Source: a virus
Taxonomy: Duplodnaviria > Heunggongvirae > Uroviricota > Caudoviricetes
Reading direction: 5' to 3' (one strand)
IMG/VR virus record: IMGVR_UViG_2718217884_000005
Span: 1 to 25,610 of that record
DNA: 25,610 nt
Within the stretch, counting starts at the first letter, position 1; the number at the start of each line of letters is the position of its first letter. Of this stretch, positions 18,125-19,019 are shown piece by piece. The notes under the pieces were generated by a model. That model saw only the letters and a list, made by a program, of their open reading frames with translations. It made no database searches and was not told the origin of the DNA. Both the position numbers and the translations under genes were made by a program.

Positions 18125-18988
18125 ATGGATTGTGACGCTTTACAGGATATAAAAATCTCTCTTAGGTATGACGGAAAAGATGCTTTAAATCATGAAATAG
18201 ATTTGAACTGCCTAGGAGAATCCCTAAAGGGTTTTTCTAAAGTTCTCTCAACAGCAGCTTCTTTCTCTGTTACACAAAAATATAGTAAATACATTAATTA
18301 TCAGGAAGTTAAGGTTTACGCACGCGAAGCAAAAGCTAACTGCTTTACTCTTGAAGCAGTTCTTAACTTCGCCACTCAGAACCAGTTGTTCTCGGGGATC
18401 GCCGCAACTATACTTGGCGCAATACTACAATATATTTTTGCGAGAAATTCTAACAAGAAAGATGAAATGAAAGCTTTGCAGCAGTCACTTGAAAAGGCCA
18501 TAGAGGCACTAGGAAACAAGGATGCTGGAACCATTGATAAGTTGATCTCTTTGATTGACCGAATGGCTGTAGAGCTTCGCCCCTCTGTAAGGCAGGCAGT
18601 ATCACCTATTGGTAATACTTGCGATCAGATAAGTGTTGCAACAAATGTTGACGGCTGCCTTCTAAAAGTTAACGAGAGAGATAAAGCTGAAATTGATAGG
18701 CTTGATGATGATGAAGTTCTCGGTCTTCGTGAGTATCGTGCTTTTCTTACAGAATTTGATGCACAAAATATGACAGCTAAAATAATTTTAGATGGTGATG
18801 ACTCAAAAAAGAGAATCACTGCTGAAATTAGCGATCCAGCTGCAGGAAAGAAGAATAACCCGTATATTAGAGCTCTTAGTGCATATATATCAACCAAAGG
18901 TGATCCATCTGCAGTATTCACTATAACCGCAAAGGCTACTGTTAAAAAAGGCCAGATAAACAGGTTATTTATTGTAGATGCGAAATGA
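18125..18988 (+). CDS. orphan hypothetical protein (287 aa) in the cI-downstream, rexAB-equivalent slot; candidate exclusion / abortive-infection protein
   Basis: clean ORF with RBS, strongly AT-rich, same strand and 66 bp downstream of cI, followed at once by a strong terminator; central hydrophobic segment [19 protein letters not shown]; no family recognised. Confidence 0.6.
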
Positions 18989-18992
18989 TTTC

Positions 18993-19019
18993 CCCGGCCG
19001 TCGTGCCGGGTTTTCTTTT
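18993..19019 (+). terminator. strong rho-independent terminator closing the cI–orphan operon
   Basis: perfect stem cccggc / gccggg around loop cgtcgt, followed by ttttctttt. Confidence 0.85.

Follow-up and report, generated by a model that had tools for sequence, protein, structure and literature searches.

A repressor-linked gene of the phi80 40A family occupies an exchangeable cargo site of lambdoid prophages and is a candidate for a single-protein phage-exclusion function

The window analyzed here is a stretch of 25,610 nucleotides (nt) of a Caudoviricetes virus (positions 1 to 25,610 of the IMG/VR record IMGVR_UViG_2718217884_000005), and the subject of the analysis is a 287-amino-acid (aa) open reading frame (ORF) located in it directly behind the gene cI of a CI-like repressor. 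The ORF is a real gene of the family of protein 40A of phage phi80 and has the position of a second gene in the repressor operon; the members of its family are linked to repressors with an S24 peptidase domain, and the site that it occupies is polymorphic, being filled in related prophages with other genes, candidates for phage defense among them, or empty. The interpretation to which an even chance can be given is that the ORF is cargo co-transcribed with cI in the lysogen and protecting the host cell against other phages, with the C-terminal oligonucleotide/oligosaccharide-binding fold (OB-fold) of its product acting as the sensor and the N-terminal domain acting as the effector or oligomerizing part. 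The features of the immunity region on which the analysis is based are given below by their positions in the window.

18125-18988, + strand: DUF7946 + DUF7947 gene (phi80 40A family), 287 aa; N-terminal domain at aa 11-191, predicted C-terminal OB-fold at aa 197-287
17366-18058, + strand: CI-like repressor, first gene of the unit; HTH_3 (E = 1.5e-6) and Peptidase_S24 (E = 1.6e-18) according to Pfam
18060-18992, + strand: swap-in cargo cassette (66-nt leader and ORF), with boundaries from blastn and a five-site alignment
18993-19019, + strand: intrinsic terminator of the repressor operon (tIMM equivalent); stem and T-run invariant at five sites
17220-17329, no strand assigned: OR-like operator cluster of four AATAGCAATNNGTATT sites (≤2 mismatches) between cI and the divergent cro-like (YdaS-type) gene
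19145-19187, + strand: OL-like operators (three sites, 19145-19185) and an overlapping pL-like promoter (TTGATA-17-TATTAT, 10/12)
17330-17358, + strand: candidate pRM-like promoter (TTGACC-17-TAAATT), a consensus match only (9/12), with its function inferred from its position

An earlier note on this DNA had described the ORF as lying 66 nt behind a CI-like repressor gene on the same strand, which was confirmed, and no terminator-like site was found on the + strand of the gap between the two genes. The start of the repressor gene was placed at ATG 17366 (PGAP-style); the RefSeq coding sequence (CDS) of the same gene is 693 bp in size, and the longest repressor ORF begins at 17309. The terminator, which had been reported as a 6-bp GC hairpin with a T-run within 5 bp of the ORF, was found in the same place, starting 4 nt past the ORF stop codon, and consists of the hairpin CCCGGC-cgtcgt-GCCGGG followed by TTTTCTTTT (folding energy −12.1 kcal/mol, z = −2.0). 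It should be noted that four terminator-like matches were found in 2.9 kb against 2.6 expected, so one such match alone is not above chance. The geometry of a single cI–ORF unit proposed in that note was thus upheld, with no terminator between the genes and a common backbone terminator behind them. The 16-nt operator-like motif AATAGCAATNNGTATT (≤2 mismatches) occurred seven times in the window, compared with 0.33 expected from shuffled sequences, and the pL-like promoter reads toward kil-gam-bet-exo, where Gam was found by Pfam. Since these operator-like repeats flank the cI–ORF pair, the ORF belongs to the immunity region, with cI on one side and OL on the other. No other cargo gene accompanies it in the interval from the repressor to OL/pL, which is where phage lambda has rexAB. 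A distance of 7 nt separates the end of the −10 hexamer of the pRM-like candidate from the cI ATG, so the cI mRNA would have no leader or almost none, like the one made from lambda pRM. The antisense ORF at 18625-19038 (137 aa) was rejected as spurious, conservation and purifying selection lying in the sense frame, and an Rfam scan of the window returned a tRNA and nothing else.

Comparison of related prophages revealed that the site behind cI is exchangeable. Full-length copies of the cI gene of the window were found in 719 E. coli genomes, and 2,209 had its S24 half, whereas the ORF was present in just 77 (at ≥99% identity in 77 of the 5,426 complete genomes, ~1.4%, and on the chromosome every time). 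Behind related cI genes, the site contained a 353-aa protein and an ASCH protein (phage 4A7 and strain AVS0710), a DUF6932 protein and a 310-aa protein (PhiR30_1 and strain OkiPb01716), or a small putative lipoprotein (PhiR26_1), and it was empty in strain JJ1887, the cI allele of which (WP_000858975.1) precedes the ORF in strain 720632. In the blastn comparison of the window with the loci L102 (empty), L101, L004, and L002, the homology stopped at 18054-18059 and restarted at 18993. The cassette is, consequently, bounded by the stop codon of cI on one side and by the base with which the terminator stem begins on the other, and the sequence between them, represented in the window (18060-18992) by a single ORF, differs completely among prophages with common flanks. 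The alignment of five sites demonstrated that the sequences preceding the hairpin were unrelated, the stem arms and the T-run were invariant, and the sequence beyond them was near-identical. As the terminator is invariant across five differently loaded or empty sites, it is a backbone element equivalent to tIMM and not a part of the cassette, and, therefore, each cargo has been inserted inside the repressor transcription unit. This position inside the repressor unit is the strongest argument at the sequence level that the ORF would be expressed in the lysogen.

The idea that this site is a hotspot for swapped-in genes was also supported by what it contains elsewhere. Of the four alternative cargos, three strongly matched phage defense candidates of PADLOC, namely, PDC-S25 (SIR2, E = 1e-234), PDC-M11A/B (E = 3e-133 and 7e-52), and PDC-M63A/B (E = 3e-39 and 4e-42), and the site can also be empty. 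In a Vitreoscilla prophage, a PDC-S25 SIR2 gene stands directly after the DUF7946 gene. The logic of such a hotspot is already published: the interval from cI to N is a known mosaic hotspot, with rexAB located there in lambda, and bstA, situated downstream of cI, is highly expressed during lysogeny in BTP1, its synteny being kept in diverse bacteria (PMC8585504).

The earlier note had regarded the ORF as an orphan without a recognizable family, and this view must be abandoned. The window protein passed the gathering thresholds of two Pfam families in succession, DUF7946 (aa 11-191, E = 3.8e-55, 187.2 bits) and DUF7947 (aa 201-287, E = 1.4e-18, 67.1 bits), with a cutoff of 27 bits for each, and was matched over its full length by PHROG 5147. 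Protein 40A of phage phi80 (YP_007947967.1; Swiss-Prot P14817, VG40_BPPH8) had an identity of 62% over 99% of the query. Thus, the family is already catalogued, with two Pfam domains of unknown function, a phi80 member sequenced since 1988, and a Swiss-Prot entry without a function; in the literature covered, no paper on DUF7946, WP_000340376, or PDC-S42 and nothing relevant on phi80 40A was found. The label "acetate kinase superfamily domain" of the phi80 40A record was not reproduced by the Pfam scan and was not accepted. A word-indexed search yielded 65 homolog clusters with identity down to 41%, from Klebsiella, Enterobacter, Serratia, Raoultella, Citrobacter, Proteus, Providencia, Morganella, Neisseria, and Vitreoscilla as well as from metagenome proteins, and an exhaustive profile search yielded 494 representative clusters (50% identity), of which 343 were at E ≤ 1e-10. 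The family consistently takes the form of one protein of ~280 aa; the size of the full-length members ranged from 265 to 365 aa among the 150 matches listed, and both DUF domains were kept in nine of the ten divergent members tested. The exact window protein was found on at least 1000 contigs under the name "DUF7946 domain-containing protein [Enterobacteriaceae]". In all loci examined, the family was restricted to phage or prophage contexts.

Comparison of the ORF with a 91%-identical Klebsiella-type copy gave a nonsynonymous rate (dN) of 0.049 and a synonymous rate (dS) of 0.91, i.e., dN/dS = 0.054. In an alignment of 43 sequences (down to 34% identity), 13 columns were invariant and 29 more were conserved at ≥90%, and conservation over the full length extended down to 35% identity across Enterobacterales and Neisseriaceae. 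Judging by these sequence comparisons, the ORF is a real, functional gene under strong purifying selection. Its content of guanine and cytosine (GC) was 38.4% (29.5% at third codon positions, GC3) against 47.1% in cI and 52.8% in bet-exo, so the ORF is indeed more AT-rich than its neighbors. Meanwhile, the GC content was lower than that of the flanks in 17 of the 18 family loci, with hosts spanning 40-60% GC, and, therefore, low GC marks the cassette family and not a recent event in this prophage. The recent acquisition that the earlier note had read from the base composition is accordingly doubtful and was rejected as unproven.

The linkage of the family to repressors was evaluated in a survey of 80 IMG/VR viral loci encoding a homolog. 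An S24 repressor was located upstream on the same strand in 72 of the 80 loci, in 61 of these 72 within 200 bp. Together with seven reference repressors (from the window, phi80, and five other loci), the upstream repressors formed 18 clusters at 60% identity and 8 clusters at 40% identity. In phi80, 40A stands directly behind cI on the same strand and is followed by the annotated OL operators and pL. The order of repressor and homolog was also found in one Vitreoscilla and three different Morganella prophages, and in two metagenomic prophages (L016 and L017), whose proteins were 35-36% identical, the homolog stands behind the repressor with a few small ORFs in between. The identical E. coli protein occurred behind two cI alleles that had a common S24 half and a DNA-binding part of only ~52% identity. 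Eight loci had no upstream S24 repressor, and their homologs were 39-49% identical; a Chromobacterium prophage has the homolog in convergent orientation to the repressor arm, and the homolog of a Serratia island adjoins Abi_2 and AlpA with no repressor nearby. Such locations, like those in lysis and tail regions considered below, are typical positions of accessory genes (morons). A separate observation concerns the prophage attributed to Helicobacter pametensis (L006, BK070131.1), in which a 50%-identical homolog lies at 4995-5822 and not beside a repressor. For a host among the epsilonproteobacteria, such an identity is higher than would be expected, and, therefore, the host assignment may be wrong or a recent transfer may have occurred.

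The same linkage could be read in another way, namely, that the protein serves the lysis–lysogeny decision of its own prophage, tuning the RecA-dependent self-cleavage of the S24 repressor or stabilizing one state of the switch through binding of single-stranded DNA or of the repressor by the OB-fold. The tight association with S24 (LexA-like, RecA-cleavable) repressors of at least 18 types and the conserved basic and aromatic residues of the OB-fold are consistent with this, as is the case of lambda RexA, which modulates the lysis–lysogeny switch through PRM, as mentioned in a paper on P. putida RexAB (PMC12894663). However, the site is empty in JJ1887 behind the same cI allele that precedes the ORF in strain 720632, and the identical protein is found behind two alleles with different DNA-binding domains, repressors of <40% identity also occurring upstream; a protein that occurs unchanged behind divergent repressors is, therefore, not tailored to one of them. 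Distant homologs stand after lysis or tail genes and in the Serratia island, and most lambdoid repressors are of the S24 type anyway, so the linkage may reflect the slot only. A role in the switch is, in view of this, considered unlikely.

The structure of the protein was predicted by two AlphaFold2 runs, based on alignments of 22 and 43 sequences, which agreed with each other (mean predicted local distance difference test, pLDDT, 77.4 and 77.8; predicted template modeling score, pTM, 0.59). The models contained an N-terminal beta-alpha-beta-beta unit (aa 10-80), a hydrophobic helix (aa 91-108), three to four amphipathic helices (aa 112-158), a beta-hairpin with a helix (aa 168-192), and a confidently predicted beta-barrel (aa 197-287). 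The charged, coiled-coil-like C-terminal half anticipated from the letters was not recovered, its place being taken by the short helices and the barrel. The C-terminal domain of the model is a five-stranded barrel that superposed on solved OB-folds, the top matches including periplasmic metal and stress proteins (SilF/CusF and YgiW) and B subunits of sugar-binding toxins; sequence identity to the listed OB-fold proteins (SilF/CusF, SSB/RPA/PriB, and IF1/CspA) was 3-15%. The invariant or near-invariant residues of this domain were D212, K219, R230, D237, P238, Y247, K270, G276, and L281. The Met, His, and Trp metal ligands of CusF/SilF were not conserved, and no Met, His, or Trp was found among the invariant or near-invariant OB residues of the 43 sequences. 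A search of the family profile against PDB chain sequences gave nothing below E = 0.02, the matches being short helical stretches.

The hydrophobic segment noticed earlier is present at aa 88-106, with a mean Kyte–Doolittle value of 1.85, an Eisenberg <H> of 0.72, and a hydrophobic moment (muH) of 0.19, values that favor insertion into a membrane. Among the 183 full-length members, a single segment of this kind was typical (median position 88, median Kyte–Doolittle value 1.68, ≥1.6 in 66%), and a second one was detected in only one of them. In the 43-sequence alignment, Leu, Ala, Gly, Ile, and Val accounted for most of the segment, and the helix, which is conserved, was non-amphipathic. Membrane association of the protein is thus possible; the helix could equally be an element of a buried core or of oligomerization. 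The claim of a membrane-associated protein is, on the whole, borderline: the existence of the segment and its hydrophobicity speak for it, while the Hessa estimate and the topology of charges, which are described below, speak against it.

Among known systems, the closest is phi80 40A itself, which has the same two domains and the same position after cI and before OL/pL, although its repressor and phage backbone are different. The likeness to lambda RexA/RexB is one of arrangement, since the order of cI, cargo, terminator, and OL/pL is the same in lambda and in the window. The rex genes are expressed in the lysogen, and the design proposed here, in which an intracellular sensor is combined with an effector in the membrane, finds its nearest functional analogy in them. 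However, RexAB consists of two genes, for a soluble sensor and a separate membrane protein, whereas the cassette of the window is one ORF with one marginal hydrophobic segment. Comparison by hhalign gave probabilities of 0.09% with lambda RexA and 0.24% with RexB, and no Rex family of Pfam was matched at E ≤ 1, in accordance with the earlier statement that the protein resembles neither RexA/RexB nor SieB or a known Abi. BstA of the Salmonella prophage BTP1 is similar in that it is encoded by a single gene, located behind a prophage repressor and followed by a terminator of its own or a shared one; it acts by abortive infection, its synteny with the repressor is conserved in diverse Gram-negative bacteria, and self-immunity is conferred by aba, a DNA element at the 5' end of bstA (PMC8585504). 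The window protein had no BstA match in Pfam (E ≤ 1) or PADLOC (E ≤ 10).

The only PADLOC match of the window protein was PDC-S42 (E = 1.5e-4, 19.3 bits, model positions 4-113 of 302), and this similarity recurred in 5 of the 11 members scanned (the window protein and 4 of the 10 divergent ones), with E-values from 4e-5 to 1e-3 and 16-21 bits. PDC-S42 is, like the members of the 40A family, a single protein of ~300 aa, of which ~100 N-terminal positions can be aligned, and it is itself a candidate. The weak similarity suggests a remote sister relationship of PDC-S42 and the 40A family and not membership. Weak PADLOC matches of two divergent members to ZorA and JetA were dismissed as compositional, as they fall in the helical linker.

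The ORF is best explained as a functional accessory gene (moron) that belongs to the phi80 gp40A family and is carried as cargo between the stop codon of the S24 repressor gene and the operon terminator. Along with the repressor, its product would be synthesized in the lysogen, with the pRM-like promoter as the source of the transcript, and also while lysogeny is being established, and its most probable task is the protection of the lysogen against other phages through superinfection exclusion or abortive infection by a single protein. The OB-fold, with its invariant K219, R230, Y247, and K270, may recognize a ligand that comes from the phage, nucleic acid or a replication intermediate being the most plausible, and the DUF7946 domain with the conserved glycine/alanine-rich, non-amphipathic helix at aa 88-106 would be the oligomerizing or membrane-acting effector. 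A bolder version, which we hold to be improbable, is that the protein is the equivalent of RexA and RexB in one chain, with the OB-fold sensing the intermediate and the helix oligomerizing in the inner membrane, so that the cell would be depolarized or the entry of DNA blocked.

Several results weigh against a protective function or against parts of this mechanism. The scans with Pfam and PADLOC gave no match to SieB, Abi, or other validated defense systems, and the PDC-type neighbors are themselves only candidates, so guilt by association with them is an indirect argument. No report and no experimental evidence of any phenotype for the family were found in the literature covered, which did not include the phi80 genome paper. 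The N-terminal domain was predicted with low confidence at aa 56-89 (pLDDT < 50), which a deeper alignment did not improve, and no structural match to this domain was found. The Hessa estimate, calculated as a simple position-independent sum, was +1.6 kcal/mol for the window protein, with a median of +3.2 and no value ≤0 in the 183 members. The charges flanking the hydrophobic segment, i.e., a conserved basic C-flank (RNSNKK) and a highly charged N-terminal domain of 87 aa, fit neither simple topology: the basic C-flank would place the C-terminal part in the cytoplasm, and, therefore, the charged N-terminal domain, which has no signal peptide, would need to be exported. In addition, the NCBIfam model NF053583 ("LAPAL motif-containing putative phage structural protein") matched the N-terminal 116 positions only (E = 4.7e-6, 26 bits versus a cutoff of 60), PHROGs 3243 and 13337 had weak N-terminal similarity of the same kind, and, among five repressor-less loci inspected, one homolog follows a lysis cassette and another is surrounded by tail-like genes.

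Besides the role in the switch discussed above, a lysogenic-conversion gene of the bor/lom moron type, acting in host physiology unrelated to phages (envelope, stress, or colonization), has to be considered. A low-GC moron that is presumably expressed in lysogens, carries a helix possibly interacting with the membrane, and is widespread in clinical and animal Enterobacterales would correspond to such a gene, and the structural matches to SilF/CusF, YgiW, and the sugar-binding toxin B subunits point in the same direction. Meanwhile, the ligands of the CusF/SilF type are not conserved, the invariant OB residues being K, R, D, P, and Y, a signal peptide is absent, and the hydrophobic helix is marginal; moreover, the slot elsewhere holds cargo of the defense type, and the family is confined to phage and prophage contexts in all loci examined. 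This explanation is, consequently, also given a low probability. Much less probable is a structural or injected protein of the virion or another protein of the lytic cycle that neighbors the repressor by chance. The weak NF053583 match (26 bits) and a 40%-identical homolog in a tail-like region, flanked by a large coiled-coil ORF and an ORF of 1656 aa (locus L093), could be cited for it, but the match is far below its cutoff and limited to the N-terminal 116 positions, the gene lies upstream of pL inside the repressor unit (in the window and in 72 of the 80 loci), a region that is presumably transcribed in lysogens and is not a late operon, and the slot is dispensable because it can be empty. 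Finally, a decaying or spurious AT-rich ORF without function, to which an IS1A insertion in H19 (NZ_CP128594.1, 3681489-3683129), +1 frameshifts at nt 87 (L051 and L052) and at nt 681 in an A-run (L058), and the split of the gene into 40A and 40B in the 1988 phi80 sequence X13065 might point, is extremely improbable and essentially refuted at the sequence level by the dN/dS of 0.054 at dS ~0.9, the 13 invariant columns and conservation down to 35% identity, the confident C-terminal fold, and the exact protein on at least 1000 contigs. The disrupted copies may be sequencing errors or true inactivation, and the latter might hint at a cost of carriage.

Some other regions of the prophage should be mentioned. 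The positions of cro and cII are filled by YdaS-like (17028-17261) and YdaT-like (16458-17003) proteins, and, although Pfam names these families toxins, their place here is that of the switch regulators of this immunity type. From the pL-like promoter to kil (a 68-aa CDS from 19467), ~280 bp (19190-19466) contain no annotated gene or N-like ORF, and Rfam gave nothing there at gathering thresholds, whereas in phi80 and lambda this place is taken by nutL and N; N-independent antitermination or an unannotated small gene may account for this. A second variable slot, revealed by comparison of L001:331-2022, L004:1-558, and L003:1-1078, is situated beyond ren and P. In the window (13504-14253, + strand), it contains a gene for an outer-membrane beta-barrel protein (Lom/Ail-like), and the alternatives are a NACHT-domain protein (strain 720632), PD-lambda-1 (PhiR26_1), and QacE with a recombinase (phage 4A7). 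Beyond the Q antiterminator (9380-10069, − strand), the segment 4142-7601 contains an AraC-family regulator (4142-4894), an insertion sequence with a DDE_Tnp_1 transposase (5273-6184), and an Acyl_transf_3 acyltransferase (6537-7601); it resembles cargo or a disrupted late region, and, therefore, the prophage may be defective. The tyrosine integrase gene (22989-24152, + strand) directly adjoins a tRNA gene (24170-24242, − strand), and this junction is probably the prophage end and attachment site.

With regard to the significance of the protective function proposed for the ORF, if the 40A family is anti-phage, it would be a new family of single-protein defense without homology to validated systems, spanning ~1.4% of complete E. 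coli genomes and reaching across Enterobacterales and Neisseriaceae. If the protein is the equivalent of RexA and RexB in one chain, this new defense family would be distributed over many immunity types, including that of phi80, and would have gone unnoticed since 1988. If the gene tunes prophage induction instead, it would represent a new accessory layer on switches built on S24 repressors. As a general rule for these lambdoid prophages, the interval from the repressor stop codon to the operon terminator is a plug-in cargo site, and this rule could serve to mine and rank new candidates.

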